Virus record (IMG/VR): IMGVR_UViG_3300020048_000012
Strand: one strand, 5' to 3'
DNA: 64,000 nucleotides
DNA from: a virus
Positions within the stretch are counted from its first letter, which is position 1, and each line of letters opens with the position of its first letter. Position numbers and translations under genes: made by a program. A model generated the notes under the pieces. It saw nothing but the letters and a program-made list of their open reading frames with translations. It had not been told where the DNA came from and did no database searches. Below, one piece after another: positions 6,674 through 47,671 of the stretch.

Positions 6674-6946
6674 ATGATTCGGCTGGAAATTTCGTCTTGA
6701 ATTCTTCGGCCTTCACGTACTCATTGAATGCCTTTGCTTCAAAGAACACTTTCTTAAAGACGCTCAAATGAGAACGCTTTGGGCACACGGTGAGATAAAT
6801 TGATTTTGCTTTACCGGCCATTTTGATTCCTTGTTTGGTTTTGATAAATCTATTATACCACAAAATCTAATTGTTGTACACCGTTATTTGCAGTGCTTTC
6901 TGGTGTCAAAAATCTCATGATGCTGGTAGATACTAACAAAGAGCAT

Positions 6947-6997
6947 GAACAATGACGTACGTCACTTTCGGTGCTCTAAGTTGTTGATTTATATAGG
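6947..6997 (-). repeat. IHF-site/palindrome repeat, copy 1
   Basis: GAACAATGACGTACGTCAC..GCTCTAAGTTGTTGATTTATATAGG. Confidence 0.85.
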
Positions 6998-13120: not shown

Positions 13121-13803
13121 AATTTTAAATTCCTAGAATACGCTTCAATTTCGACTAATAAATCATCTCTACAAATGTCTACATTTATAATTTTACCACT
13201 AATATTGTATTTTTGTAAAATATGTTTTACAACTTGATTTGATTCTTTATTCTTTACGTAGATAGTATACACTAAGTCTGAATTAGTTACACCCGATGTT
13301 GTCATCAATCTTCCGATATTATTAAGCGTTAAATCTATTTGACCAAACAAATCATCTTTATACCATGTTTCACTGCCACGAATACTGGCTGTGCCAGATA
13401 TCAATAAGTTATTGTCGTGTATTGCTGCTCGCGAAAATAATGGAACGCCATACACAGATGGATAATTGAATGGATCTATTTGATTTGTATTGCTAAAGAA
13501 ACGAGCTGGCGTTCGTGCTCGCGTATAGATGAGAGTGTATGTATCATCGAATGATCCTAAAGCACATGCAGTAGGATATTCCGTTACATTAAATTTAGTG
13601 AATATCTTTTTGCGAACTACATTGAATTTTGAGTATCGCTGAACGCCATCTTCATAACGAAGAATATCGGGTATAAAGTTTCTTATGTTGATAATGTATG
13701 GATATTCAGAATTGGGCGTAAACATTGCATTATACGCCCGTTCAATTTGTGATTCTATATCATATCCACTTATTTTGATTTTAGTAGTTTGATAATTTTT
13801 CAT
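13117..13803 (-). CDS. FkbO/Hyg5-family chorismatase-like protein
   Basis: NIRNFIPDI...RYSKFN..R, PTACALG, FSRA, LLISGTASI, DICRDDLLVEIE; start placed outside the tRNA gene. Confidence 0.8.
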   Translation of the reverse strand: MKNYQTTKIKISGYDIESQIERAYNAMFTPNSEYPYIINIRNFIPDILRYEDGVQRYSKFNVVRKKIFTKFNVTEYPTACALGSFDDTYTLIYTRARTPARFFSNTNQIDPFNYPSVYGVPLFSRAAIHDNNLLISGTASIRGSETWYKDDLFGQIDLTLNNIGRLMTTSGVTNSDLVYTIYVKNKESNQVVKHILQKYNISGKIINVDICRDDLLVEIEAYSRNLKL

Positions 13804-13813
13804 AATATTAAAA

Positions 13814-13889
13814 TGGTGGTCGGAAGAACACTCGAAGTTCCACATTTATCCGTATGAAGGATACTCTCTGCCTCTTAAGATACCCGACC
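13814..13889 (-). tRNA. tRNA with CAU anticodon (Met or Ile2)
   Basis: Cloverleaf; tatcc-ttCATac-ggata; CCA encoded. Confidence 0.85.
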
Positions 13890-13892
13890 AAT

Positions 13893-13967
13893 TGGTAAGT
13901 CGAATAGGATTCGAACCTATATTAAAGCCTTATAATGGACTCTACTCTACCGTTGAGTTATCGACTT
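13893..13967 (-). tRNA. tRNA-Ile(UAU)-like with 8-nt anticodon loop
   Basis: Good acceptor, D and T arms; gagtc-CATTATAA-ggctt. Confidence 0.65.
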
Positions 13968-13972
13968 ATTTA

Positions 13973-14116
13973 TTATAGTTTAGCACACTGTTCATACACT
14001 TTACCTTCACCTACACAAGGTATGAAGGCCCTCGAGGTAAATTCCGACTTTTCACATTTTCAGGTAATTACTCCTTACTTAGTGTTTCTCAGTTCGTGCA
14101 GTGCGCTAAACTATAA
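13973..14116 (-). ncRNA. Stem-closed ncRNA A
   Basis: 18-bp terminal inverted repeat ttatagtttagcacactg/cagtgcgctaaactataa. Confidence 0.65.
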
Positions 14117-14213
14117 CATATTAAACCATACTAACTGCCTAAGCCACAAGAGCTTAACCCTGCCCGTGATGTGAGCTACCTCATCTATCACGCACCCAGT
14201 GTGGTTTAATATG
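14117..14213 (-). ncRNA. Stem-closed ncRNA B
   Basis: 16-bp terminal repeat catattaaaccatact/agtgtggtttaatatg; internal hairpins. Confidence 0.65.
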
Positions 14214-14214
14214 C

Positions 14215-14310
14215 GAACTCATTGTAGGCAGGGGTCGAACCTGCACGAGGCGTCTATTTCCTCCGACCCTATGAGAGGTCTATGACTACCAATTCCATCA
14301 CTACGAGTTC
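14215..14310 (-). ncRNA. tRNA-like element (class II body, no CCA)
   Basis: GGAATTGGTAG D-loop, long variable arm, GCAGG-TTCGACC-CCTGC T arm, bulged acceptor gaactc/gagttc. Confidence 0.6.
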
Positions 14311-14359
14311 CTCAGGTGATCAGTCCCGAGAATGGTGAAGGGTAATTAATCCTTCGTTT

Positions 14360-14484
14360 ACCATATTTAAGCGTCTTAATATCTCTCATAGTTGACGCTA
14401 TAAGTTTTCGCAGGCCGTCAAACCCACCGAAATACTCTACGCGTTTCTTGCATAGAGTACCCCGTCAAGACACTTAAATATGGT
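14360..14484 (-). ncRNA. Stem-closed ncRNA C
   Basis: 18-bp terminal repeat that includes the ACCA of the upstream tRNA-Val. Confidence 0.65.
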
Positions 14485-14555
14485 GATTGAGATAAGAATT
14501 GAACTTATGACCTCAACGATGTCAACGTTGCGTTCTACCACTGAACTACTCAACC
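14481..14555 (-). tRNA. tRNA-Val(GAC)
   Basis: caacg-ttGACat-cgttg; CCA. Confidence 0.92.
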
Positions 14556-14630
14556 AAGTTATGATACACGTATCACTTCAATACGTATCCATCGACTTCC
14601 GTCGTGCTTTCTACAATATCTTAAGCTAGT

Positions 14631-14704
14631 ACCATATTAAAACACACACCTTGAACCTATGTTTCTCATCGTGTCCGCACAGGCGGGATGTGTTTTAATA
14701 TGGT
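14631..14704 (-). ncRNA. Stem-closed ncRNA D
   Basis: accatattaaaacaca/tgtgttttaatatggt; includes the ACCA of the upstream tRNA-Lys. Confidence 0.65.
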
Positions 14705-14774
14705 AGGGCTGCTCGGTAACGATCCGAGTTTTACGAGTTAAAAGCTCGTTACTTCACCTTAAAGTTTCAACCCC
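14701..14774 (-). tRNA. tRNA-Lys(UUU)
   Basis: acgag-ctTTTaa-ctcgt; atypical D and T loops. Confidence 0.85.
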
Positions 14775-14779
14775 ATGTA

Positions 14780-14854
14780 TGGTCCCGTGGCTCAGATTCA
14801 AACTGAGTTCTCTCGGCTTAAGAGGCCGGACTTCATCGTCAAAGTTTCCTCGGG
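14780..14854 (-). tRNA. tRNA-Lys(CUU)
   Basis: cggc-ctCTTaa-gccg; CCA. Confidence 0.82.
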
Positions 14855-15002
14855 TGTTACGTATTGAATTATCTTTTACGTGCACACTTTAGACCATACA
14901 TGGGATCTAAAGGGCACTATCGTTTAGCAGATGCTTTCATATAGTTTCCTTTTGTTTTAAAAATTAATTATACTCTAATTACGTATTATTGTACACTAAT
15001 TT

Positions 15003-15079
15003 TGGAAAGCCATGAGAGATTTGAACTCCCGACCTCTTCGTTCGAAGCGAAGTACTCTAGTCCACTGAGTTAATGGCTC
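15003..15079 (-). tRNA. tRNA-Arg(UCG)
   Basis: cttcg-ctTCGaa-cgaag. Confidence 0.92.
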
Positions 15080-15085
15080 ATTGAT

Positions 15086-15289
15086 TTACGCGTAAGAATA
15101 AAACGTCTTAGACTTACCTTTAGAATTAGTTACAACGCTTGTGTTAATCGCGTATCCATGTTCACGGATATCGCTAATGCGTGCGCGGACAGCATTTGGC
15201 GTAGTCTTAAGGCGTGATGCAAGTTGTGCGACGGTTTGTGTTTTGCCTTCAAGCACGAGAGTTTCAAAGATTTTGCGTTTAATCGACAT
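15086..15289 (-). CDS. Small winged-HTH DNA-binding protein
   Basis: TVAQLASRLKTTPNAVRARISDIRE.GYAI. Confidence 0.75.
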   Translation of the reverse strand: MSIKRKIFETLVLEGKTQTVAQLASRLKTTPNAVRARISDIREHGYAINTSVVTNSKGKSKTFYSYA

Positions 15290-15311
15290 AATATATCCTC
15301 TTATAATAAAA

Positions 15312-15385
15312 TGGAGTACTCATAGGGAATCGAACCCTATTACCCGGTTTTGCAGACCGTTGCCTATCCAACTGGCTCTGAGTAC
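15312..15385 (-). tRNA. tRNA-Cys(GCA)
   Basis: cggt-ctGCAaa-accg; U73. Confidence 0.92.
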
Positions 15386-15389
15386 AAAA

Positions 15390-15464
15390 TGGTGCCGCTC
15401 CTAGGTTTCGATCCTAGTACCAAGGAATTATGAGTTCCCTGCTCTCCCATTGAGCTAGAGCGGC
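15390..15464 (-). tRNA. tRNA with CAU anticodon (Met or Ile2)
   Basis: gggaa-ctCATaa-ttcct. Confidence 0.9.
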
Positions 15465-15469
15465 AAATA

Positions 15470-15792
15470 AAATTAACACTTCCACTGGACCAGCCTGGCG
15501 TACAGACTGCGGTGGCTCCACCGACAGAAACGTTTATCAGGATTTGAAGAACTTTGATTGCCTCGAGTCTTTCGACTTGTCAATGGCTAATCGTTGTGCT
15601 TTCATGATTTAAACGTTTATCTTTGACACTTAAACTTTGAACTTTAATATTTAAACGTTGAGGTTCCATATTGGTAGGCATTTCTGCCCGATAGTTCGTT
15701 GATTTAAAATATCAATGATTTGTCCATATTTTGATACTGAGGACAATAAGTAAGGCCGTTCTAATCTGTTCGGTCCAGCAAAGTGTTAACTT
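15470..15792 (-). ncRNA. ~320-nt structured RNA with 7-nt periodic repeats
   Basis: Terminal helix AAGTTAACACTT..GCTGGACC / GGTCCAGT..AAGTGTTAATTT; about six internal hairpins, two with GAAA loops; no ORF support. Confidence 0.8.
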
Positions 15793-16429
15793 AAAAACTG
15801 ATAGTTGTCTTGGCGTTAACCTCAGACAAAGTGAAATCCAATTCAGTATCGACAAGAGAAATTTCTTCCTCAAGTGCAGCAATCTTCTCAACAATGTTGA
15901 CTGGGTCAATCAATGCAGCTTCCTTCATAGCCTTCTGAGGCTTAGCAATTAGGTCATATGAACCTGCGTCCACCTTGGATTTATCGCTACCATAAATGGT
16001 CTTCAAGTTAGAGTCAATGTCTTGCTCCAACTTGGCGTTCAATTGAGACACAAGGCCTTGAGCACGAGTTTGTTGAAGACGCATAACATTCAACAGATTA
16101 CGCTTGCTGTCGATCGAACGCTTCATTTCGATAGCTTCTGCGACAGTCACTTCAATCGAACCAATCTTCACTGTCGTGACAGCATTGGACTTAACGATCG
16201 CAGCTTTGATTGCGGCACGTTCCTTAAACAGCGAATTCACAGTATCAAAAGAACTCTGGATCTTAGCCTTAGCCTGATCGACGGACAGTCCTGCCGTATC
16301 ATTGACCTTCATCTGAGCGTCTTTACCAACACTGACAGTCACAAACATACCGGCACTCGTCGCACGAGCAATACGGTCATCGAGACGCTTCAATTCAGCC
16401 AAAGCACGAGTTACAGACATTGTGTTCAT
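15791..16429 (-). CDS. Coiled-coil protein of unknown function (reminiscent of DIP1984-like proteins; unverified)
   Basis: SVTRALAELKRLD..., TVAEAIE, ELDF.LSE.NA.T.I; AAGGA RBS 7 nt before the ATG at 16429. Confidence 0.85.
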   Translation of the reverse strand: MNTMSVTRALAELKRLDDRIARATSAGMFVTVSVGKDAQMKVNDTAGLSVDQAKAKIQSSFDTVNSLFKERAAIKAAIVKSNAVTTVKIGSIEVTVAEAIEMKRSIDSKRNLLNVMRLQQTRAQGLVSQLNAKLEQDIDSNLKTIYGSDKSKVDAGSYDLIAKPQKAMKEAALIDPVNIVEKIAALEEEISLVDTELDFTLSEVNAKTTISF

Positions 16430-16461
16430 TTTCATTTCCTTCATAGTTAAACGTTGATTAT

Positions 16462-16540
16462 TGGTACCCAAGAGGAGACTCGAACTCCTAACTTTTCTTC
16501 GTTCTTAGCGAAGCGCCTTTTCCAATTTGGCAACAAGGGC
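16462..16540 (-). tRNA. tRNA-Leu(AAG), with mismatched acceptor stem
   Basis: cttcg-ctAAGaa-cgaag; two U-U mismatches in the acceptor. Confidence 0.7.
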
Positions 16541-16546
16541 ATTATA

Positions 16547-16621
16547 TGGTACCTCTGCCAGGAATTAAACCTGGATCTGAACCTTCGCAGGGTTCTGTGA
16601 TATTCATTTCACTACAGAGAT
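16547..16621 (-). tRNA. tRNA-Arg(GCG)
   Basis: gaacc-ctGCGaa-ggttc. Confidence 0.85.
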
Positions 16622-16628
16622 AAATTCA

Positions 16629-16774
16629 TTATTGTTAAGAGTTATCATGCAAATTTAGGAGTGAGGTGCTTCCTCTCCAAAGCCGATGCAGTTATATTAG
16701 GATCAGTCGCCGGCCGCTTTGACCCGAATAGATTACACGTCTGTAATCGATACCTTGATAACGCTTAACAATAA
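16629..16774 (-). ncRNA. Stem-closed ncRNA E
   Basis: 19-bp terminal repeat ttattgttaagagttatca/tgataacgcttaacaataa; internal hairpins. Confidence 0.65.
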
Positions 16775-16846
16775 TAAAACACATTAGGAGTCCTATGGAG
16801 GGGAGATTATGACCTTCGGAACAACCCTAAGAACTAACGTGTTTTA
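16775..16846 (-). ncRNA. Stem-closed ncRNA F
   Basis: taaaacacattag/ctaacgtgtttta. Confidence 0.6.
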
Positions 16847-16853
16847 ATAAATC

Positions 16854-16982
16854 AGAGGCTGGTCTAAGATGTCACAGAATCGAACTGTAAAACCATCATC
16901 TTAAAGAGCGCGGAGTTTCTAGCTACTCATTGCTCCACTCGGCCGAGTTAACCCGTTACATGCGCTAACACATAACACCTCT
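16854..16982 (-). ncRNA. ncRNA G containing an isolated T-arm module
   Basis: TAAGATG...ACAG-TTCGATT-CTGT..CATCTTA inside an AGAGG/CCTCT closure. Confidence 0.55.
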
Positions 16983-16987
16983 AAACT

Positions 16988-17065
16988 TGGTGTGAGCATC
17001 CGGATTCGAACCGGAGTATCTGAGTTGGCAACCCAGGACATTAGACCAAACTATGCTATGCCCAC
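16988..17065 (-). tRNA. tRNA-Gly(GCC)
   Basis: ctggg-ttGCCaa-ctcag. Confidence 0.88.
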
Positions 17066-17072
17066 GAAAATA

Positions 17073-17147
17073 TGGTGCTCCCATAAGGACTTGCGCCCTA
17101 CTCTGAGGCTTACAAAACCCCTGCATCGCTATCTATGCTTTGAGAGC
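17073..17147 (-). tRNA. tRNA-Thr(UGU), atypical loops
   Basis: ggggt-ttTGTaa-gcctc. Confidence 0.75.
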
Positions 17148-17154
17148 AGATCCA

Positions 17155-17240
17155 ACTGTGAACTTATGCTAAGCCGTTGGCGCTTTCGCAGCCAGATCAA
17201 GGTTCTGGAAGACCTAAATTGGTGGGATCAGTTTCACAGT
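17155..17240 (-). ncRNA. Stem-closed ncRNA H
   Basis: actgtgaa/ttcacagt closure with two internal hairpins (one GAAA loop). Confidence 0.5.
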
Positions 17241-17274
17241 CGTCCCGGCGTGTAGGATATACTACAACTATATC

Positions 17275-17345
17275 TGGATGCGGGTGAAGGGCACGATCCT
17301 TCTGGGCCGAGCTTATGAGACTGGCCGATCACCTGAATACCCGCA
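17275..17345 (-). tRNA. Degenerate CAU tRNA lacking a D stem (initiator-like acceptor)
   Basis: TGCGGGT/ACCCGCA acceptor, ctCATaa loop, CCA. Confidence 0.55.
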
Positions 17346-17401
17346 ATATTTTGTTTATTGATTAATTATACAACAATTTCTATTTAATAGAAAATCTAAT
17401 T

Positions 17402-17476
17402 TGGCTCCCCAGGAAAGGTTCGAACTTCCGACCAAGTGATTAACAGTCACCTACTCTACCACTGAGCTACTAGGGA
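17402..17476 (-). tRNA. tRNA-Asn(GUU)
   Basis: gtga-ctGTTaa-tcac. Confidence 0.93.
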
Positions 17477-17486
17477 ATAATAAAAA

Positions 17487-17574
17487 TGTAGTGTAACTGG
17501 AGTCTTAATTACCAGTATAGCGCAGGCGCACGCGGGAGACTAATCATCTCAGGCAAGTGATAACGCCTACTACA
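17487..17574 (-). ncRNA. Multi-hairpin ncRNA I
   Basis: tgtagt/actaca closure with three to four hairpins. Confidence 0.45.
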
Positions 17575-17578
17575 AAAT

Positions 17579-17664
17579 TGGCTCCACGGGTAGGGATCGA
17601 ACCTACGATTGTCAAAAGACGACTGGTTAACAGCCAGCTGCATTACCTCTCTGCGCACCGTGGA
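17579..17664 (-). tRNA. tRNA-Asn(GUU) with long variable arm
   Basis: ctgg-ctGTTaa-ccag; gtc-tttt-gac variable hairpin. Confidence 0.85.
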
Positions 17665-17752
17665 ATAAAATTCATTGAATCGATTCGGAATTTAACCGCT
17701 CTGTTTCCTCTTTCGAGTGAAGGCTCGTTCGACACCTCCCAGATCACTTATT

Positions 17753-17826
17753 TGGTTGGTCTGTTACGAATTGAACGTAAATCGGTCGCTTATAAGGCAA
17801 CTGCTCTCCCATTGAGCTACAGTCCA
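17753..17826 (-). tRNA. tRNA-Ile(UAU)
   Basis: gttgc-ctTATaa-gcgac. Confidence 0.88.
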
Positions 17827-17834
17827 ATAAATTT

Positions 17835-17909
17835 TGGTACCTGGTGTTGGTTACGCTCCAACTACAAACGCCTTATCAAGACGCTACCTCGCTATTCGGT
17901 CTACCAGGC
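17835..17909 (-). tRNA. tRNA-Ile(GAU)
   Basis: gcgtc-ttGATaa-ggcgt. Confidence 0.82.
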
Positions 17910-18178
17910 ATGCGGACCCAGATTTATGTCATTAGGCCCATTAGACAGAGGTCTCTTGAGTTTAGATAGTCAAGCTATCAAAGCGAGTTGGAGACACTGC
18001 TTATACATTTGAGTTCCCGTTTGTCATTGTGGCACGGGTCGCCTTGACGTCCTCAAAAAGGTTCTCAGAAACTGTGTTAACAGTCTTGTCTCGTAAGAAG
18101 GAGATCTTGCGTGTTCGTGTGAAAAAGCCCAATCAGTTGGCACTACTTGCGACTCGACTTCTACGTCTATCTGAAATT

Positions 18179-18255
18179 TGGAGCGTCCACCCGGATTCGA
18201 ACCGGGACCATCAGCTTGGAAGGCTGTCATGCTAGCCGTTAAACACCATGAACGC
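18179..18255 (-). tRNA. tRNA-Gly(UCC)
   Basis: cagc-ctTCCaa-gctg. Confidence 0.93.
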
Positions 18256-18261
18256 AAAACT

Positions 18262-18387
18262 TGGTGTGTAGAGTAGGTCTCGAAGCCTACAAATAGTACC
18301 ATACTCTGAGTCGTTAAACTCATATCAGAATCGAACTGAATGACCAGGCTCATCACCCGGCGCGTTTACCAATTACGCCATCTACAC
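18262..18387 (-). ncRNA. 126-nt tRNA-like RNA with a second T-loop in a giant variable region
   Basis: 7-bp acceptor plus ACCA, D arm, ccggg-TGATGAG-cctgg, ~50-nt insert. Confidence 0.7.
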
Positions 18388-18395
18388 ATAAAAAC

Positions 18396-18470
18396 TGGTA
18401 TCCCGTATCGGTTATGCTCCGATCTCAGTAGGGTGAAGGCCTACTTGCCACACTAGCTGCATCACGGGAT
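18396..18470 (-). tRNA. tRNA-Glu(UUC) with C33
   Basis: gtagg-ccTTCac-cctac. Confidence 0.75.
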
Positions 18471-18479
18471 ATAAAAACT

Positions 18480-18554
18480 TGGCGATCTTAGCCGGTAACG
18501 ATCCGGCTCTTCCTCTTAGACAGAGAGGTGTGCGTCCATGAACACTTTAAGACC
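18480..18554 (-). tRNA. tRNA-Asp(GUC)
   Basis: cctct-ctGTCta-agagg; G73. Confidence 0.88.
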
Positions 18555-18912
18555 TAAAATTCAAGTCACAACCATTGGGACTCATACCCATTCTATAAAG
18601 TGTACCAGTGTGACCAGCGTACACGAAGTTTACTCATGGGCATTTACTTTCCCATTAATTCTTAAATTAGGTCGGGAATACACGGCGTTAGAAATAAAGT
18701 GGCTCTCGGTTTCGAATCAAAAGCGTATGAATATAACTTCTGTCCCTAGGCAGTCTTTCCGCCGACAATGTGTTTCAAACCCCTACTGGACCGACTTACT
18801 CTCGCATCGTCAATGATCTGTGGCTTAGTACGTCCAGCATTATTGAAGACCTCCCAGTCTCGGAAGGCTCGGCACCCATCTACTCATCCTACTAAACATT
18901 GTCTTAGTAACT

Positions 18913-18989
18913 TGGCTCCCGTGGCACTCATCGCATAGTGCGTTATCTAACCATTGGCTAAGGTCCGCGCAGACCCGCTAAACACGGAA
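18913..18989 (-). tRNA. Highly degenerate tRNA-like element with intact acceptor and CCA
   Basis: ttccgtg/cacggga-G-CCA; non-canonical loops. Confidence 0.5.
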
Positions 18990-18996
18990 ATAAAAT

Positions 18997-19082
18997 TGGT
19001 GGAGTTTGTCACAGGCTTTCACTGTGATTTGCTCAGCTAAGTTATAGCTGCTTTCGTCCTATATGTTACGTATTCAAACCCC
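18997..19082 (-). tRNA. Degenerate tRNA-like element (AAC at the anticodon position)
   Basis: ggggttt/aaactcc-A-CCA; cagct-atAACtt-agctg. Confidence 0.5.
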
Positions 19083-19148
19083 ATAAATTGGTGGACCCCT
19101 GTTTCTATGCCTGGGCCCATTGATAGAGTATCTACTATCAGCATGTTT

Positions 19149-19224
19149 TGGTGGAGGTGAGGAGGATCGAACTCCTATCTAAGCATTGCAAGTGCTCCGT
19201 GTAACCCATTATCACTACACCCCC
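19149..19224 (-). tRNA. tRNA-Ala(UGC)
   Basis: agca-ctTGCaa-tgct; G3-U70. Confidence 0.92.
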
Positions 19225-19230
19225 AAAAAC

Positions 19231-19302
19231 TGGTGGACCTATGGGGAATCGAACCCCAAGCATGGCATTGCAAGTGCCTTTCCCGTCCCATACGGTAAGC
19301 CC
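19231..19302 (-). tRNA. tRNA-Ala(UGC), second copy
   Basis: ggca-ctTGCaa-tgcc; G3-U70. Confidence 0.85.
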
Positions 19303-19418
19303 AAAATAAAAGTAACGGTATATGGATTCTTTCCCGTCAGTTGCAGAATTGAACTTTCGAACAATCGCCACATTCCAAGTACTCCGTGAAAGGGAGGATG
19401 TATCTGCATCTTATAAAC

Positions 19419-19494
19419 TGGTCAGTGATGTTGGTCCCGCCCCAACGGCCTCTCGCTTCCAAAACGAGTACTCTACTAGCTGAGCTAATCACTG
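19419..19494 (-). tRNA. tRNA-Pro(UGG)
   Basis: ctcgt-ttTGGaa-gcgag; C1-G72. Confidence 0.85.
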
Positions 19495-19599
19495 TAAATT
19501 CTTGCTGTGGTAGCTAATACCTCAAGCACAAGCAGTGCATCCCAGTTACGCTGGTTCGTTTATGCAAGGGCGAGTTTGCTTACGCCTTAGAGTGCTCAT

Positions 19600-19675
19600 T
19601 GGTCTCCATACGAGGATTTGAACCTCGGCTTCTTGGTCCCAAACCAAGTGCGCTACCAGGCTACGCAATACGGAG
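19600..19675 (-). tRNA. tRNA-Pro(UGG)
   Basis: cttgg-ttTGGga-ccaag. Confidence 0.93.
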
Positions 19676-19681
19676 AAAATC

Positions 19682-19767
19682 TGGTGGATGCGGTAGGATT
19701 CGAACCTACAAGTCCGTGAGGAGCCGGATTTACAGTCCGGGGAGCCAACCAATTGCTCAACACATCC
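19682..19767 (-). tRNA. tRNA-Tyr(GUA)
   Basis: ccgga-ctGTAaa-tccgg; long variable arm. Confidence 0.93.
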
Positions 19768-19774
19768 AAAATTA

Positions 19775-19886
19775 ATTATACATAAACATACTCGCATCTG
19801 CCTTTGGAGCCGCGTGTTCCTCCCCTTGTTTTACCACAGGATCCTGTGGAGGAGTGTGCACATTTACACCAATGTTTATGTATAAT
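19775..19886 (-). ncRNA. Stem-closed ncRNA J
   Basis: Perfect 15-bp attatacataaacat/atgtttatgtataat. Confidence 0.65.
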
Positions 19887-19994
19887 CATATTGAAACATA
19901 TTCCAGGGGGATTCGCACTTGCCTTTTCTTCAGTAAACACTGACCCTGCATCTTAAATCAATAAGAGGAACCTAACAAAATATGTTTCAATATG
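19887..19994 (-). ncRNA. Stem-closed ncRNA K
   Basis: Perfect 16-bp catattgaaacatatt/aatatgtttcaatatg. Confidence 0.65.
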
Positions 19995-20465
19995 ATCCCG
20001 AGGGTATCTCGGTAAATTGAGTAGCATTCCAGCGACAGTCCGATTACCAGTCGGATGCCTGCATCTCTACACAATCATTATCATATTCAAATGCTCCGGG
20101 AATACTGAAGGGCATTCTTAGCATCTCTCTTTCCACAGTATAAGACGAATGGAAGATTGCTTAACTCACCCCATGTTCAAACCAAAACACTTGAATATGA
20201 TTCCTGAAGCAGTGAACCAGCACACGTGTCCGGCGCTTACTTCAGGATATCATGAAAAATCATCAAATTTTGAAAGAACAAATCGGGATATCTTACGATA
20301 CATTACATGCAACAAGGATCGACCAAGCCGCAAACTTTCGTTCACCTCATCAAACATCATTTCTGTGTTCAACTACCTTAGTGCGCCACTTAGTGGACTA
20401 CACTCAGAACCCGATTAAAATTTTAAAGAATCTTTCTTGAAGTCCCGATCAACTTCTAAGATTTT

Positions 20466-20495
20466 ATTATACCACATTTACTAATTAAAGTAAAC
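20466..20495 (-). promoter_or_regulatory. Early promoter feeding the ncRNA-rich part of the array
   Basis: GTTTAC-N18-TATAAT with TGTGG extension. Confidence 0.8.
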
Positions 20496-20763
20496 AAGTA
20501 TTTTAAAAATTGTGATACGCTTGGTGTGAAACAAGTCGTCTTTATGTGCGTTCTTTTTTGGCTATACCTGCGAGTTTCACGCAGCGTCAATAAACACATA
20601 AATTTCACAATTTTTAAAGAACTTCCAAGCAAACTCGATGGTTTGTTTGTTTATGGATTTATTATACCACGAAGTCTATTTAATGTACACCGTTTTATGC
20701 ATTATTTTTAGTGCTTCAGGTGACTTCAAGAGACTTACGTTGGTATACTTACACTTGCCCGAT

Positions 20764-20814
20764 GAACAATGACGTACGTACACTTGATGCACATAAGTTG
20801 TTGATTTATATAGG
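20764..20814 (-). repeat. IHF-site/palindrome repeat, copy 2
   Basis: Same motif. Confidence 0.8.
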
Positions 20815-20820
20815 CCTAAA

Positions 20821-20895
20821 TGGCATCCCGACTAGGACTCGAACCTAGACATGCAGTTTTGGAGACTGCAGTGCTGCCAATTACACTATCGAGAT
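20821..20895 (-). tRNA. tRNA-Trp(CCA)
   Basis: tgcagt-ctCCAaa-actgca. Confidence 0.92.
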
Positions 20896-20907
20896 ATGAA
20901 AATACAA

Positions 20908-20983
20908 AGGGGTGACCTATGGGGAATGCTCCCATTCTATCGCTTTCACAGAGCGAGGTGCGAAACTTTTACACTAAGGTCAC
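20908..20983 (-). tRNA. tRNA-His(GUG) lacking G-1 and CCA, embedded in an extended stem (20901-20994)
   Basis: tcgct-ctGTGaa-agcga; ends C73-CCT. Confidence 0.75.
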
Positions 20984-21001
20984 ACCTTTGTATTCTAAAC
21001 T

Positions 21002-21078
21002 TGGTGCGTCTGGAGGGATTTGAACCCCCAACAGTTCGGGTAGAAGCCGAGTACTCTATCCAGTTGAGTTACAGACGC
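21002..21078 (-). tRNA. tRNA-Arg(UCU)
   Basis: tcgg-ctTCTac-ccga. Confidence 0.93.
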
Positions 21079-21085
21079 AAATTCT

Positions 21086-21162
21086 TGGTGCCCGAGGTCA
21101 GATTCGAACCGACACGATTTTGATTTTGAATCAAACGCCTCTACCAATTGGGCTACACGGGC
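21086..21162 (-). tRNA. tRNA-Leu(CAA), short variable loop
   Basis: tttga-ttCAAaa-tcaaa. Confidence 0.9.
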
Positions 21163-21171
21163 AAATATTCT

Positions 21172-21248
21172 TGGTGCGAATGGCGGGACTCGAACCCGCA
21201 GATTATGGGTTTTAAGCCCACTGCCTATACCAATTCGGCTACATTCGC
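21172..21248 (-). tRNA. tRNA-Leu(UAA), short variable loop
   Basis: tggg-ctTAAaa-ccca. Confidence 0.9.
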
Positions 21249-21262
21249 ATACTAACTAATTC

Positions 21263-21350
21263 TGGCGGAGCATGTAGGAATCGAACCTACTCACCACTTA
21301 CGCAGTGACAGATTAGCAATCTGTTGCCTTAACCGGTCGGCCAATGCTCC
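21263..21350 (-). tRNA. tRNA-Ser(GCU)
   Basis: acaga-ttGCTaa-tctgt; long arm; G73. Confidence 0.93.
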
Positions 21351-21358
21351 TTAAAATT

Positions 21359-21433
21359 TGGTGCTTCGTGACAGATTCGAACTGCCGACCCTCGCCGTGT
21401 AAAAGCGTAGCTCTACCACTGAGCTAACGAAGC
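21359..21433 (-). tRNA. tRNA-Val(UAC)
   Basis: cgct-ttTACac-ggcg. Confidence 0.92.
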
Positions 21434-21434
21434 A

Positions 21435-21668
21435 TTAACCATTTCGTCTACACTTATAGACATATTCTAATCCATCTGGCAATACGCCATCATTGATACT
21501 ATCAACACCAGATTTTCCAACTTGATTTGGATCTTCGCATACTGTTGTAACAAATGACATACCCAATTTACGCATTCCTTCTGACACTTCTAACGCTCTA
21601 AGTAGAGTCGCTGTGTCTACAGCGTGTGACCAGTTTGTGACTGGATCAGTATAATACACTTTAAACAT
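21435..21668 (-). CDS. Small hypothetical protein within the tRNA array
   Basis: 77-aa ORF exactly filling the gap between two tRNAs. Confidence 0.7.
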   Translation of the reverse strand: MFKVYYTDPVTNWSHAVDTATLLRALEVSEGMRKLGMSFVTTVCEDPNQVGKSGVDSINDGVLPDGLEYVYKCRRNG

Positions 21669-21683
21669 AATTCACTTTATTTA

Positions 21684-21760
21684 TGGTGGGGATGGAGAGA
21701 CTCGAACTCTCAGCTTACGGCTTCTAAGACCGCTGCGTCTACCAATTGCGCCACATCCCC
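21684..21760 (-). tRNA. tRNA-Leu(UAG), short variable loop
   Basis: gcggt-ctTAGaa-gccgt. Confidence 0.9.
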
Positions 21761-21769
21761 GAAATATAT

Positions 21770-21843
21770 TGGTCAGTGATGGAGGTACCGCCCCTCCGCT
21801 TCAAGTTTCCAAAACTCGTAGACTACTTTTATCTCAATCACTG
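21770..21843 (-). tRNA. tRNA-Pro(UGG), third copy, atypical loops
   Basis: cgagt-ttTGGaa-acttg. Confidence 0.75.
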
Positions 21844-21850
21844 ATTAATC

Positions 21851-21924
21851 TGGTGCCCCTTCAAGGAATTGAACCTCATTCTGATGCTTACAAGGCAACT
21901 GTAATACCAATATACTAAAAGGGC
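21851..21924 (-). tRNA. tRNA-Thr(UGU)
   Basis: tgc-ctTGTaa-gca. Confidence 0.85.
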
Positions 21925-21928
21925 TTCT

Positions 21929-21999
21929 AATATTTGAGCATACTAACTGGATCCATCTCGCACTAGGTGCATCTCGGGCGATCAATATGCTCAAATATT
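21929..21999 (-). ncRNA. Stem-closed ncRNA L
   Basis: Perfect 14-bp aatatttgagcata/tatgctcaaatatt. Confidence 0.6.
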
Positions 22000-22040
22000 G
22001 GAGCTGCTACGGAGAATCGAACTCCGCTTGTCGGGATGAT
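21999..22040 (-). pseudogene. 3' half of an interrupted tRNA-Glu-like gene
   Basis: TCAT-CCCGA-CAAG-CGGAG-TTCGATT-CTCCG-TAGCAGC-T-CCA. Confidence 0.75.
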
Positions 22041-22041
22041 C

Positions 22042-22116
22042 TGGAGTCGCATACGGGAATCGAACCCGTCTCTACAGCATGAAAGGCTGTTGATCTAACC
22101 GATAATCTAATGCGAC
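22042..22116 (-). tRNA. tRNA-Glu(UUC)
   Basis: acagc-ctTTCat-gctgt. Confidence 0.9.
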
Positions 22117-22781
22117 ATTGTTCTACCTTGTTTAAATCCTTCTGGTATTATATCACTATCTTTTATTCTGGTGTTCACTTTACCATCAGTTATCCAAACT
22201 TGCTTATATTTTCTTTTATATTCTTTAACTTTTTTACCAAGTAATGAATCAGAAATTTTCTTCTTCATCTCATCTGTCATTGTGTTCTTAGATTTTTGAT
22301 GTCTGCCGGCACAAATTCTACTACAAAATTTTGTTTCGGTTTTTATCTTTCTCTCTGTTTCAAACTCAATTTTACAACAATCACAGAGATGTTTATATTT
22401 TGGTTTATATCCATCGTATAGTTCAAAGTATTTCTTTGTTCCATATTTTCGAGTAACATATTCAAATGCGTATTGTAAATCATCTTTACGTAACACATTT
22501 ACAATATAACCAAAAGATTCAGCAACCTTTGTTTTCTTATCAACAAATTCTTGTTTCTCGTATCCCTTTGTTTCTATTATCGTTTTTCCATCAGATAATA
22601 GAAAATCAGGATAATAAGTTATTCCATCTTTTTCTAACTTTCCAGGAAATCTTTCGAACTCAATGTGGTGATCTAAACTATAGATCACCCAACACAATTC
22701 ATAAGTGCTACCGCAATATATTCCATTATAGTATCCACTTTTTGATCTTCCAGAACCTTCTCTATATCCACCTATTGTCAT
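22107..22781 (-). CDS. PD-(D/E)XK-type endonuclease with Zn-binding and NUMOD-like C-terminus (putative homing endonuclease)
   Basis: YYPDF...IIETKG; CDCC..FCSRIC; WITDG; TATAAATA at 22800-22807 and GGAGG RBS. Confidence 0.75.
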   Translation of the reverse strand: MTIGGYREGSGRSKSGYYNGIYCGSTYELCWVIYSLDHHIEFERFPGKLEKDGITYYPDFLLSDGKTIIETKGYEKQEFVDKKTKVAESFGYIVNVLRKDDLQYAFEYVTRKYGTKKYFELYDGYKPKYKHLCDCCKIEFETERKIKTETKFCSRICAGRHQKSKNTMTDEMKKKISDSLLGKKVKEYKRKYKQVWITDGKVNTRIKDSDIIPEGFKQGRTMSH

Positions 22782-22807
22782 ATAACACCTCCATTTTATT
22801 ATTTATA

Positions 22808-22842
22808 TAAAATGAGTGTCCTAACCGATAGACGATAGCAGC
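22808..22842 (-). pseudogene. 5' half of the interrupted tRNA
   Basis: GCTGCTA-TC-GTCTATCGGTTAGGAC; acceptor strand is 7/7 complementary to TAGCAGC at ~22003-22009. Confidence 0.75.
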
Positions 22843-22927
22843 AAAAATTTGCGAGCATCTCACGATGTGTCGACTTCGTATCTTATGCACCGTATTCGAC
22901 CGATGACTCAGAAAAATACGCTATAAC

Positions 22928-23209
22928 TCAGCGACGTTGTACGTATACGTCGATCGTGCGTGCATCTTCAAGCTTGAAGCTTTTGACACACTGATTCTTG
23001 TATTTCGCGTAAGCAGGATTTCCTTTGCCTAAACGAGCTTTTAAACAAACTCTAAACAATACCGGAGTTTGCTTGTGCCACTTTGCGGTCAAGACTGCAC
23101 TTTTGTTGACAGAACGAATTGACTTGCGAACCGCTTCAATTTTGTCCATGTCAGACGTACTCATCGGGTCAGCGGTGAATACGTAAGCGTCTGTTCTTGC
23201 CTTTTTCAT
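22928..23209 (-). CDS. Hypothetical phage protein
   Basis: 93-aa ORF after an early promoter and RBS. Confidence 0.7.
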   Translation of the reverse strand: MKKARTDAYVFTADPMSTSDMDKIEAVRKSIRSVNKSAVLTAKWHKQTPVLFRVCLKARLGKGNPAYAKYKNQCVKSFKLEDARTIDVYVQRR

Positions 23210-23441
23210 AATCTATCCTTGTTTCGATAGATCAATTATACCACAAAGTCTAATTATTGTACACCGTTTTCTTCTTTTTTCTTGCCGTATGTCTTAACGA
23301 TGCTTTCGCCGCTAATCATCATATTCTTAAAATGATTGCGCTGTTCATCGCTTGTCAAAGTCGCCATCAAGCGCTTTGTCTGTTTCGAAAGTTTAAAATG
23401 TCCATTTGTCTTCATAATATCTCCATTAAAAAATATATACA

Positions 23442-23520
23442 TGGTGGGAGGTCTAGGAATCGAACCTAGTTCTTCTGCTCTTCAGGCAGACGCTGGAATC
23501 ACCAGACTAGCTCACCTCCC
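23442..23520 (-). tRNA. tRNA-Phe(GAA)
   Basis: tctgc-ctGAAga-gcaga. Confidence 0.92.
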
Positions 23521-23697
23521 GAAATTCACTAAATCTTCATCAATCCATCAAAATACGCTTTCCACGATTTAGCATATTGGTCTACACTAAACTGCAGTGT
23601 CGTATACATCTGCGTATAAAACCATCCGTAATGTTTTACAGCATCTTCAAGCGTTTCACTTTTCAATGCGCGTTTGAGATGATATGACGCTGGAATT

Positions 23698-24246
23698 TTA
23701 TACATTCTTTCTTTCCTCTGCAATCTTCTGGATAACATGTTCAAGAAGAATTGGTTTAAAATCGGTATGCTCTACTGAAACACAGTGGTATCTAGTATCT
23801 ATACGAGATACGCCATGCTTATCGATGAGCATCACTCGATCACTATGAAGATGTCCATGTACATTTGCAGTAAATTTTCTGAAACTAGCTTCATGGATTG
23901 GAATGTGAGTCAAAAGCAAATTGCTCAACGAATAAGATCCATGAACATCTTCAAAAAATGGAGCGTATTCGTCCATTCTAAGATTATCATGATTGCCCTT
24001 AATGAGAACTTTCTTACCATTGAGTCTATTCATAATACCAATAGACCTACGATTCATGACAACATCGCCAAGATGATAAACTTTATCTCCTGGTTTGACT
24101 GTTTCATTCCAAGCCTTTACCAATGCTTCATCCATTTCATCTGGATTAGTCCATGGACGCAATTTAGTGACACCATCAGATTGTGTAAATCTGCAAACGC
24201 CCATATGACCAAAATGTGTATCCGATACGATGTAAACTGCAGGCAT
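23698..24246 (-). CDS. Calcineurin-like metallophosphoesterase
   Basis: SDTHFGH, LGD, KGNHD, THIP, HGHLH. Confidence 0.9.
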   Translation of the reverse strand: MPAVYIVSDTHFGHMGVCRFTQSDGVTKLRPWTNPDEMDEALVKAWNETVKPGDKVYHLGDVVMNRRSIGIMNRLNGKKVLIKGNHDNLRMDEYAPFFEDVHGSYSLSNLLLTHIPIHEASFRKFTANVHGHLHSDRVMLIDKHGVSRIDTRYHCVSVEHTDFKPILLEHVIQKIAEERKNV

Positions 24247-24374
24247 TTTAAAATTTCCTTATAATTCGTTTTATTTAATAAAATTATTATACCACGAAGT
24301 CTATTTAATGTACACCGTTTTGTGCAGTATTATTTCAAAGTGATAGTGTGTATATATCACTCAAGTGTTATAAG

Positions 24375-24466
24375 TGGCGGAGAGCAGAGGAGTCGAACCC
24401 CATCCCATTTCTGAGAACCTGGTTTTCAAGGCCAGTCGCAGGACCATCCCCGCTGCATTACTCTCC
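24375..24466 (-). tRNA. tRNA-Ser(UGA)
   Basis: ctTGAaa loop; long arm; G73. Confidence 0.9.
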
Positions 24467-24473
24467 GAATTTT

Positions 24474-24551
24474 TGGCAGGGGTAATTGGATTCGAACCAA
24501 TGATGACGATTTCAAAGACCGTTGCCTTAGACCAAACTAGGCGATACCCCA
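24474..24551 (-). tRNA. tRNA-Gln(UUG)
   Basis: acggt-ctTTGaa-atcgt. Confidence 0.92.
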
Positions 24552-24718
24552 ACAATAGTAAAACATTCATTAAACATTTTACTATAGCCCCTGAGAAGCA
24601 GTGGACCGGCACAAAGGCCGGCGCTTACTTCTCAGGTGACCATTAATCAGACTTTCGTCTGATTTTTAGAATTCACTAAATTTTTAAAGAGCGTTGGAAG
24701 TTTCCTTCCTTAGAGTGT

Positions 24719-24748
24719 ATTATAACACCCTGACGATTTATTGTACAC
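24719..24748 (-). promoter_or_regulatory. Early promoter at the head of the tRNA array
   Basis: GTGTAC-N18-TATAAT. Confidence 0.8.
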
Positions 24749-24757
24749 CGTTAAACA

Positions 24758-24787
24758 CAAAAGCCCCAATCTTTCGAGAGGGGCTTT
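24758..24787 (-). terminator. Intrinsic terminator upstream of the tRNA array
   Basis: AAAGCCCC-TCTCGAAAGAT-TGGGGCTTTT. Confidence 0.8.
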
Positions 24788-24818
24788 GGCGTGATCCTAC
24801 TGATCTTACACTTAGCCC

Positions 24819-24923
24819 CTAATTATCCCAACCCTCGATCGAATGCTGAGGACGCGCATTAAATTTACTGGTCGTATAGACCGGCAAAGTTGTGCAGTTG
24901 GATAAGAGTGTATGTATTAACAT
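24819..24923 (-). CDS. Putative 34-aa leader peptide (MLIHTLLSNC...GWDN)
   Basis: ATG 7 nt after TATAAATA (24931-24938); stop overlaps a sequence complementary to the terminator 5' arm. Confidence 0.5.
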   Translation of the reverse strand: MLIHTLLSNCTTLPVYTTSKFNARPQHSIEGWDN

Positions 24924-24930
24924 TGTATTT

Positions 24931-24938
24931 TATTTATA
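24931..24938 (-). promoter_or_regulatory. T4-type late promoter TATAAATA
   Basis: Exact gp55 consensus; others at 22800 (-), 1139 (+), 25153 (+). Confidence 0.7.
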
Positions 24939-25219
24939 CGTCGAGAACGGCTCCTGCGCCACTCCAGACAACTTTATTTTCGTCTTCGTACAATCTAAAT
25001 TCATAGTCTGCAATGTCAAATCCAAACGCTTCACATGTCGCTTCAACTGCATTGACGCCGGGTACGATGTCTTTGTACCAACCGACTTCAACACCTTTTT
25101 TGAAAACTTTTACTTTTGTCTTTTCCATTACTTGATCTTTCATATCGCGGTGTATAAATATAGTGTCTATCGCGATATCTCACTATCCATAGACTCTAAC
25201 ACTAACAAGGAGTGCCAGC

Positions 25220-33879: not shown

Positions 33880-34021
33880 TTAATGGTTCCTTTTGATTTG
33901 ATAGATCTATTATACCATAGGATCTAATTAATGTACACAACTTTATGCACTTTTTTGAACTATTTTCGGTGATGTATGAGCATCAAGATCATTTAAGTGT
34001 GTAACTACCGGCGAAGAGCAG

Positions 34022-34071
34022 GAACAATGACGTACGTCACTATTGATGCTCTAAGTTGTTGATTTATATGG
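34022..34071 (-). repeat. IHF-site/palindrome repeat, copy 3
   Basis: Same motif. Confidence 0.85.
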
Positions 34072-39070: not shown

Positions 39071-39196
39071 TTTACTTTGCTTGTTTGGTTTTGATGGATT
39101 TATTATACCACGAAATCTAATTTCTGTACACCGTTATTTTAAGCGTTCAGGATCACTCGAGTCTCTTTATGCTGGTAGATTACTAACAAATAGCAG

Positions 39197-39247
39197 GAAC
39201 AATGACGTACGTCTCTTTTAGTGCTCTAAGTTGTTGATTAATATAGG
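39197..39247 (-). repeat. IHF-site/palindrome repeat, copy 5
   Basis: Same motif. Confidence 0.85.
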
Positions 39248-44878: not shown

Positions 44879-45627
44879 TCTATACTCCTTGGAATCATTC
44901 TTTCAAGTTTACGGCGGTTAATTTGTTTAACTTTGCCAAGCCGACCAGGCTTCCGATACAAATATCCCCACTTGAGCGTCGTGATTAAGTCGTACCCTTG
45001 CACATAGACTTTAGCGTATTTGTTTTGATCATATGACAATACAATCACGTGACGAATTGGTGCAGGCATTTCAGCAGCGTCACCAAGATCAACGAACGGG
45101 TAGTCCGTCCAAGCAGAAACGCGGTTGCATTTTTTCATATCCTACTCCTTCGTTAATGCCTGGGCATAAGTTTCACCGCCTTGATCACGTGCAACACTCA
45201 CACCACCTGCCAGCTTCCATCCAAAAGCAAGAAACTCTTCGACCTTCACGGCCAATTTCCAAGTAGAACTCTCAGTCAGTACAGTATATCTCATAATAAA
45301 TCCTTAACGATCTTTGAGACGTTTCATCACAGCGACGACTTCTGGATCTTCCATCAGTTCATTGAACTTTTCAGTGGCGAACTCAACGATGAAAGCTTCT
45401 TCTTCAGGCGTAAGTGGAATGTATTTTGGCGCATTAGGAGTTCCGATTTCTCGCTTGATCATGCAAAGCATTTCATAACGTTGTTTGCGGGTGAGAAAGT
45501 TCATTTTGATTCATTCCTTGATTTGATAGATTAATTATACCACAAGATCTAATTAATGTACACCGTTATTTTGAGTCACAAGATGTCACAAATGCCATGA
45601 ACGAGTATGTCTACCCACTCATGGCAT

Positions 45628-45678
45628 GAACAATGACGTACGTCACTATTGGTGCTCTAAGTTGTTGATTTATATAGG
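45628..45678 (-). repeat. IHF-site/palindrome repeat, copy 6
   Basis: Same motif. Confidence 0.85.
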
Positions 45679-47093: not shown

Positions 47094-47671
47094 TTTTGTT
47101 CCTTTATCAATTTCTTCCAATGGAAATATGAATACACCGCATTAACCCAGAATGCTCCATACATAATGCTAGTAAGATACAGTTCGCGAGACCAAAACAA
47201 TGGAACTGACATCGTATTTACAAATACCCACACTTTCCACGTTTGAATAGATCGGCCCATTAGCAATAGTTGTGCTACCACAGAGAATGCAAGTACAGCA
47301 GAATCTATCCATGGAGCATATGCATCAGTAAACGTGCGAAGGATCATGCCATACATCACGGTCACTGCCACTGCTGCAATCATTGCAAAAGCCATCCAAA
47401 AAGGTGTTGCTTTATTGATTAGGGTTTCTTTTGCATCGGGCGTTTTGAAAAAATCCACGCCTTTCCATTTCATCCAACCAATAACACCAGTGACAAAGAA
47501 GAAGATTTGCAGTGTAGCGTCAGCATAAAGCTGAACTTTGTAAAACATGACACCGTAGAGCGCGCAACCAACAAGACCTGTCCACCAAGTGTGAATAGAA
47601 TTTCTGCCTGCAAGGAAAATACAAACAACGGTGAAGAAGTTTGCAGCAAGTTCAAGAGGTGTCCAAGTCAT
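47090..47671 (-). CDS. pnuC: Nicotinamide riboside transporter PnuC
   Basis: Multi-TM; LYADATLQIFF, P.IDSA..AFSVVAQLL. Confidence 0.92.
   Translation of the reverse strand: MTWTPLELAANFFTVVCIFLAGRNSIHTWWTGLVGCALYGVMFYKVQLYADATLQIFFFVTGVIGWMKWKGVDFFKTPDAKETLINKATPFWMAFAMIAAVAVTVMYGMILRTFTDAYAPWIDSAVLAFSVVAQLLLMGRSIQTWKVWVFVNTMSVPLFWSRELYLTSIMYGAFWVNAVYSYFHWKKLIKEQK

Follow-up and report, generated by a model that had tools for sequence, protein, structure and literature searches.

The tRNA cluster of the viral record IMGVR_UViG_3300020048_000012 (IMG/VR), a stretch of 64,000 nucleotides (nt) referred to below as the window, is predicted to carry at least 13 small RNA units between its tRNA genes, each closed from end to end by a long helix (the stalk) around an interior that differs from unit to unit (the cargo). 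The favoured reading, with a probability of roughly 0.55, is that these units would be co-transcribed with the tRNAs and freed by tRNA processing, the stalk serving both as an RNase III-type processing site and as a handle that protects the ends. With single unannotated copies in hundreds of cultured phages, the design looks like an overlooked RNA class in T4-like phages.

The source phage is uncultured, divergent and T4-like. The window proteins include both topoisomerase II subunits, two RNA ligases, a DNA ligase and an exonuclease, and the large topoisomerase subunit shares at most 45% identity with those of cultured Aeromonas and Vibrio T4-like phages. The cluster lies on the minus strand (13814-24551) and comprises 33 tRNA genes.

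Stem-closed units between the tRNA genes

Stems of at least 14 Watson-Crick base pairs (bp), with no more than one mismatch and a span of 45-200 nt, were concentrated in the 10.8-kb cluster (13800-24600), which contained 10 of them compared to 1 in the other 53.2 kb of the window, and 100 dinucleotide shuffles of the cluster averaged 0.05 and never exceeded 1. An earlier note on this DNA had listed nine elements with long terminal stems (A-F, J, K and N). All nine fold on the minus strand where it placed them, with stems of 13-23 bp and z-scores of -3.3 to -8.7 against dinucleotide shuffles, and the terminal helix was present in both the minimum-energy and the centroid structures. The three pairs described there as abutting with no spacer do so to the nucleotide (A and B at 14116/14117, E and F at 16774/16775, J and K at 19886/19887). 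Four members were found beyond that list (20080-20201, 20502-20618, 15470-15792 and the tRNA-His stalk at 20899-20996; Table 1). Three elements with shorter closures, which the note had also counted as members (16854-16982, 17155-17240 and 17487-17574), look like chance, as their closures measured 5-8 bp with z-scores of -1.4 to -1.8; the closure of 17155-17240 was moreover missing in L001, an IMG/VR contig that is the sole close relative of the window (95% identity in the 226-amino-acid (aa) protein of the cluster).

The Rfam scan of the cluster (13500-25000, gathering thresholds as well as E up to 1) retrieved tRNAs and no other family. None of the elements matched any of the 4227 covariance models, including those for self-cleaving ribozymes, riboswitches, GOLLD/ROOL and the other classes. 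A reading of the units as terminators was rejected, since they have no U-tracts and the minus-strand terminator-like sites listed for the window all fall outside them (0 inside any stalk-closed unit).

Table 1. Positions and properties of the stem-closed units, the related RNAs in cultured phages and the promoters of the tRNA cluster. Positions refer to the window unless preceded by a locus identifier.
Feature	Position	Strand	Size and structure	Context
Element A	13973..14116	minus	144 nt, 18-23 bp stalk, class II ends TTATAG...CTATAA	no gap to B; tRNA-Ile follows 5 nt after its end; not in L001
Element B	14117..14213	minus	97 nt, 16 bp stalk, class I ends CATATT...AATATG	comes after the tRNA-like unit 14220-14307
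tRNA-like unit	14220..14307	minus	T-arm, 8-bp closing helix, odd anticodon loop
Element C	14360..14484	minus	125 nt, 20-22 bp stalk	begins with the 4 nt ACCA that end tRNA-Val
Element D	14631..14704	minus	74 nt, 16-21 bp stalk	stalk begins in the ACCA end of tRNA-Lys; identical in L001
T4-early-type promoter	14967..14995	minus (tRNA strand)	TGTACA, 17 nt, TATAAT	one of six
Extra unit	15470..15792	minus	about 320 nt, noncoding, 22-bp closing helix, z -5.1	between the stop of the 226-aa open reading frame (ORF) and tRNA-Met
Element E	16629..16774	minus	146 nt, 21-23 bp stalk, class II	no gap to F; tRNA-Arg follows 7 nt after its end
Element F	16775..16846	minus	72 nt, 13-16 bp stalk, TAAAACAC...GTGTTTTA
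Weak candidate	16854..16982	minus	5-bp closure, T-loop-like hairpin	class membership unsupported
Element J	19775..19886	minus	112 nt, 15-17 bp stalk	no gap to K; tRNA-Tyr follows 7 nt after its end
Element K	19887..19994	minus	108 nt, perfect 16-18 bp stalk, class I
Extra unit	20080..20201	minus	122 nt, 20-bp stalk including G.U pairs, class I handle
Extra unit	20502..20618	minus	117 nt, 16-17 bp stalk	between two early-type promoters
tRNA-His (GUG) stalk	20899..20996	minus	acceptor stem plus 12-bp leader-trailer helix, 20 bp in all	inner 7 bp of the helix are the acceptor stem; CCA not encoded (reads CCU)
Element N	21929..21999	minus	71 nt, 18-19 bp stalk	directly follows the CCA of a tRNA-Glu 3' half; tRNA-Thr lies 4 nt beyond its end
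Five other T4-early-type promoters	starts 24747, 24314, 23263, 20689, 20494	tRNA strand
PX29 tRNA-like RNA	L086:8703-8777		7-bp acceptor, T-arm, no D-arm
PX29 stem-closed RNA	L086:8568-8709		142 nt
Cronobacter phage Pet-CM3-4 unit	L087:6559-6659			example of the Tevenvirinae unit

Selection on base pairing

A DNA repeat, being blind to strand, should yield G.U and A.C mismatches in equal numbers. In 24 elements drawn from the window and its relatives, the transition-type non-Watson-Crick positions of the terminal stalks, read on the tRNA strand, were 13 G.U and 2 A.C (one-sided binomial, approximately 0.004), of which the window stalks contributed 9 and 1, respectively. This excess points to an RNA-level feature on the tRNA strand and places on a larger sample the minus-strand G-U bias that the earlier note had perceived.

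The comparison with L001 is in agreement. The units common to both contigs are C, D, J, K, 20080-20201, 20502-20618 and the tRNA-His stalk, and the helix substitutions found in them (approximately 8) all retain pairing. Two of them are double compensatory, both in tRNA-His, where G-C became A-U in the acceptor helix and U-A became C-G in the anticodon stem, and four lead to or from G.U on the tRNA strand. In element C, a G-C pair became G.U and one hairpin tip was replaced while its stem was kept, and in element J an A-U pair of the stalk became G.U. This pairing evidence, thin but consistent, suggests that the stalks are features selected at the RNA level on the tRNA strand.

The same design in cultured phages

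In the Aeromonas phages PX29, Aeh1, Ah1, phiAS5, avDM12 and phiWae14, an unannotated tRNA-like RNA ending in ACCA is followed by a conserved 142-nt stem-closed RNA. The ACCA begins its stalk of 19-23 bp, which is invariant but for one position in avDM12, and in one inner hairpin both partners of a pair have changed, from A-U to G-C.

A second version, of approximately 100 nt, was found in 396 Tevenvirinae records (Karamvirus, Tequatrovirus AR1, Jiaodavirus and others), where it exactly fills the gap from tRNA-Gln or tRNA-Asn to tRNA-His. Over six sequences, the 14 pairs of its stalk were 100% paired, 2 having changed on both sides and 4 by G.U-type steps, whereas sliding the partner strand as a control reduced pairing to approximately 50%. 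Stalks covary in Tevenvirinae and, in the window, keep their pairing against L001, which was the behaviour among relatives that the earlier note had expected of a real element. An inner hairpin of the Tevenvirinae unit also covaries (3 double-change pairs inside the cargo), and in phage KPV15 the stalk is retained around a different interior. The inner-hairpin covariation suggests that the cargo of the cultured-phage versions is under selection. None of the cultured-phage units is annotated or matched by Rfam, and neither full-text literature searches nor the Aeh1 genome paper (PMC1524935) yielded a description of such units.

Common ends, unrelated interiors and cassette turnover

The stalk ends sort into two sequence groups. 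Those of class I begin with CAT(A/T)TT, with a sub-type in C that reads ACCAUAUUUAAGUG and recurs at 20080-20201, in L002 (a relative with 67% identity in the 226-aa protein) and, as ACCAAAUUUAAGUG, in the Aeromonas phage PX29. Those of class II begin with TTAT(A/T)GTT(T/A)AGCG and belong to A and E, J being similar. The order tRNA or tRNA-like unit, class I unit, class II unit occurs three times in the window.

The interiors are unrelated: all-against-all comparison of the 24 elements detected no similarity between them, and no k-mer was common to the cargos above the level of shuffles, so that the description in the earlier note of shared CATATT...AATATG ends around unrelated interiors was borne out. 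Searches with blastn against 50,697 cultured phage records, T4 included (queries A+B+C; E+F with the adjacent weak unit; J+K with 19995-20460), returned no cargo homologue besides one tRNA-like match. Single exact-word probes from C and K found nothing in viral contigs except L001, and a single such probe from E had no match in bacterial genomes. Relatives sought through the 242-aa neighbouring protein led to the same contig only, topoisomerase relatives had no such cluster nearby, and stalks were only sporadic in 80 metagenome loci. Antisense targets of the cargos were not found within the window, nor was any enrichment of CsrA-type GGA motifs found in the cargos, and none of them matched the tRNA model RF00005 at E up to 1. 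The possibility that the cargos are permuted or split tRNAs was dropped, as the anticodon and acceptor parts are lacking.

The clusters of the window and L001 are a mosaic of blocks with 76-100% identity. Elements E and F and the adjoining weak unit 16854-16982 are missing in L001, in which 6 nt separate tRNA-Gly from tRNA-Arg. The site of B is occupied there by an unrelated unit with the same CATATT...AATATG ends, and that of N by a 36-nt hairpin with the same AATATT ends. These absences and same-site replacements indicate that the units act as exchangeable cassettes.

Such turnover would also be expected if the units had originated at the DNA level, as inverted-repeat elements resembling miniature inverted-repeat transposable elements (MITEs) or as recombination cassettes at AT-rich palindromes (CATATG, AATATT) between tRNA genes, with RNA structure incidental. 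The boundaries of the presence/absence and replacement polymorphisms are exact at the repeat ends, and the mosaic cluster carries a homing-type endonuclease. A duplicated ATAT or TA target could make up the 6-nt common ends; CATATT...AATATG and AATATT...AATATT could conceal such a duplication, yet they are self-complementary. Correia/NEMIS-type MITEs measure 70-150 bp and carry terminal inverted repeats, which fold in the transcript, where RNase III cleaves them. Their copies share interiors and are scattered over the genome, whereas the interiors of the window units all differ, unlike those of any MITE family, and no copies were found outside the tRNA cluster and no transposase nearby. The Tevenvirinae and Aeromonas copies, for their part, are stably inherited at one site across genera. 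As the 13:2 bias and the compensatory changes speak for RNA pairing as the target of selection, and as the interiors are unrelated and the units restricted to the tRNA cluster, a mobile origin at the DNA level is the least likely reading.

Stalks around tRNAs

The same stalk design carries true tRNAs, tRNA-like RNAs and unrelated cargos. Stalk-enclosed tRNAs comprise tRNA-His in the window and, within stalks of 19-21 bp, tRNA-Asn and tRNA-Pro in L002, the latter scoring 47 bits on the Rfam tRNA model; in phage PX29, a CAU tRNA annotated as "tRNA-OTHER" lies within a 21-bp stalk. The tRNA-His unit of the window was called a tRNA by ARAGORN only, and its L001 counterpart has the G-1:C73 pair typical of tRNA-His. 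Since the enclosed tRNAs have no other copy in the stretches examined, the stalk probably must be removable, and the presence of true tRNAs inside it fits a role in processing or stabilisation.

The enclosed cloverleafs have intact anticodon loops and buried ends. Taken with the conserved handle, the hypervariable cargo, the same-site cassette swaps and the two RNA ligases encoded by the phage, this would also suit a handle that acts as an expression platform for functional, fast-changing small RNAs, for instance decoys or RNAs that counter host defence systems targeting tRNAs or other RNAs. That reading is distinctly improbable, as the cargos showed no target complementarity within the window, no protein-binding motif enrichment and no match to a known RNA family, and nothing links any of them to a defence system. 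The earlier note had combined a common handle for different cargos with a library of decoys or anti-defence RNAs. The first part is upheld by the G.U bias, the compensatory changes, the recurring stalk ends, the swapped interiors and the enclosed tRNAs. The second part was not supported, the cargos being without a common motif, an antisense target in the window or a family match, and folding hardly better than shuffles once the stalk is removed.

Proposed mechanism

According to the favoured reading, the units would be transcribed together with the tRNAs from the phage early-type promoters, which lie on the same strand as the stalks. They occupy "tRNA slots" at 0-7 nt from their neighbours, a spacing at which most of them would be freed as the adjacent tRNAs mature (through 5' cleavage by RNase P and 3' trimming), in a release resembling that of tRNA-punctuated transcripts. 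The selected part would be the helix of 16-23 bp that the 5' and 3' ends of the unit make with each other, for which two roles are proposed. As a site for double-strand-specific cleavage, most likely by host RNase III, it would allow abutting units to be split and buried tRNA ends to be unmasked (the acceptor of tRNA-His and the ACCA of tRNA-Val and tRNA-Lys). As a clamp, it would hide both ends from exonucleases and from the 5'-end-dependent RNase E, leading to a stable RNA. Transcription, RNase III cleavage, product stability and cargo function are all inferred here.

The stalk lengths cluster at 16-23 bp, approximately two helical turns, which is the length of a leader-trailer helix around an RNA to be released. 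In rRNA operons, leader-trailer stalks are cut by RNase III, and the same enzyme reportedly participates in processing of the T4 tRNA-cluster transcript, according to work by Pragai and Apirion in the early 1980s.

Several observations weigh against this mechanism. Stripped of their stalks, the cargos barely outfold shuffles (mean z = -0.7), element C alone standing out (z = -3.8), and this weak folding, together with the rapid replacement of cargos, means that many of them may be filler. The fold score of stripped cargos cannot separate structured cargo from filler, since true tRNA bodies score no better. The interiors of 30-110 nt are left unexplained, because a plain hairpin would suffice for cleavage, and, by the measure of classical RNase III substrates, stems of 13-16 bp are short. 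Covariation within this lineage amounts to few events, as there is only one close relative. Finally, no double-strand RNase was present among the 20 window proteins scanned, and neither RNase III nor Ro nor RtcB genes were found among them.

Poorly folding cargos that are unrelated, motif-free and homologue-free, and that have been replaced or lost between two phages with 95% identity in the 226-aa protein, are what would be seen if the stalk alone mattered. The units would then be processing punctuation (double-strand cleavage sites or folding insulators), with interiors that are filler, for example relics of enclosed tRNAs or captured junk; stalk-enclosed tRNAs do exist, and some cargos retain T-loop-like hairpins. 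Filler, however, would be expected to shrink into a plain hairpin, and no cargo fits the tRNA model even at E up to 1. The cargo of C retains its hairpins relative to L001, and inner hairpins are conserved in the Tevenvirinae (3 double-change pairs) and Aeromonas (1) versions. Interiors devoid of function are thus unlikely, although they deserve serious consideration, and release of the units by tRNA processing, with the stalk as cleavage site and protective handle, is preferred.

Beyond this mechanism, T4-like phages might possess a conserved "handle and cargo" platform, in which a sequence-constrained stalk docked on the 3' ACCA of a tRNA or tRNA-like RNA would express, release and stabilise fast-evolving small RNAs that are swapped as cassettes by recombination at the handle ends, and which this phage would have expanded to a library, for example of decoys against host defences directed at tRNAs or other RNAs. 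This extension is doubtful.

Other features of the tRNA cluster and the window

Downstream of the promoter at 14995-14967 and just upstream of tRNA-Lys(UUU), the minus strand encodes a 7-codon mini-ORF, MKASAKR (14918-14941), with two AAA Lys codons and a Shine-Dalgarno-like AAGGAA; its L001 counterpart reads MKTSKR. It could be a leader peptide. A helix of 14-16 bp (14770-14906) joins this leader to the 5' end of tRNA-Lys.

An intact tRNA-Glu and an endonuclease-like ORF (22107-22781) are immediately followed by the 3' half of a tRNA-Glu (T-arm, acceptor strand and CCA; 22000-22043, minus strand), whose CCA marks the start of element N. Elsewhere in the cluster, 24379-24466 (minus strand), adjoining tRNA-Gln, scored 34.9 bits on the selenocysteine tRNA model, below its gathering threshold of 47. 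Two noncoding stretches of the minus strand, 18555-19148 (594 nt) and 17827-18178 (352 nt), are 89-92% conserved in L001 and matched no Rfam family.

Outside the cluster, a palindrome centred on GACGTACGTC with AGAGCA...TGCTCT-like arms occurs near ORF boundaries at 6935-6982, 34015-34052, 39185-39232, 41715-41750 and 45617-45662, and may be a regulatory or terminator-like motif. The minus strand also encodes a 487-aa protein (45657-47120) that combines an RF-1-type (peptidyl-tRNA hydrolase) domain with a part resembling a nicotinamide-nucleotide adenylyltransferase and kinase.

Relation to known systems and significance

The closest comparison drawn by the earlier note was with RNAs C and D of T4 (species 1 and 2), which are 119-139 nt long and of unknown function. 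The parallel holds for position, as these too are non-tRNA RNAs inside a tRNA cluster, on the tRNA strand and directly after a tRNA. RNA C also has a T-arm, as do the tRNA-like unit 14220-14307 and some cargos. The parallel does not extend to sequence, blastn having detected no similarity between rnaC or rnaD and the three cargo stretches searched, nor to the stalk, of which none of at least 13 bp is present in the T4 region examined (L085); the fold of RNA D does not stand out from shuffles (z = -0.8). Two such RNAs are encoded by T4, compared with at least 13, with a recurring handle, in this phage.

The RNase III sites of bacterial rRNA operons share with the window units a long helix of approximately two turns flanking a cargo, within a polycistronic transcript that includes tRNAs. 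They differ in that the window cargos are 30-110 nt long, mutually unrelated and not rRNA, that the stalks are in tandem and sometimes abut, and that cleavage is here a prediction. Bacterial Y RNAs (YrlA, RF02553), which occur in bacteria and in some phages, have a tRNA-like module closed by a long stem between their 5' and 3' ends. In contrast to these, no Rfam match was obtained in 13500-25000 at E up to 1, most window cargos are not tRNA-like, and no Rsr/Ro (TROVE) gene was found among the 20 window proteins scanned. The TMERs of Murid herpesvirus 68 consist of a viral tRNA-like unit followed by one or two stem-closed units and are freed by tRNA processing enzymes. The order tRNA or tRNA-like unit, class I, class II that is repeated in the window may be regarded as analogous, although the TMERs are Pol III transcripts of a eukaryotic virus with miRNA-precursor hairpins and have no homology to the window units.

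Overall, the units of the window are an unusual expansion of a recognisable and widespread design, which resembles the stable RNAs of phage tRNA clusters. Phage tRNA clusters are now being re-read as counter-defence tools, and the non-tRNA RNAs inside them have been unexplained since RNAs C and D of T4. The design is now defined as an end-to-end stalk of 16-23 bp in a tRNA slot, often beginning at the ACCA of a tRNA, with evidence of RNA-level selection. As it is present, unannotated, in the genomes of hundreds of cultured coliphages, Klebsiella phages and Aeromonas phages, the question is directly testable in laboratory phages. Annotation would improve as well, since some units are currently labelled as odd or pseudo tRNAs, and the units may reveal how phages process very long tRNA transcripts.

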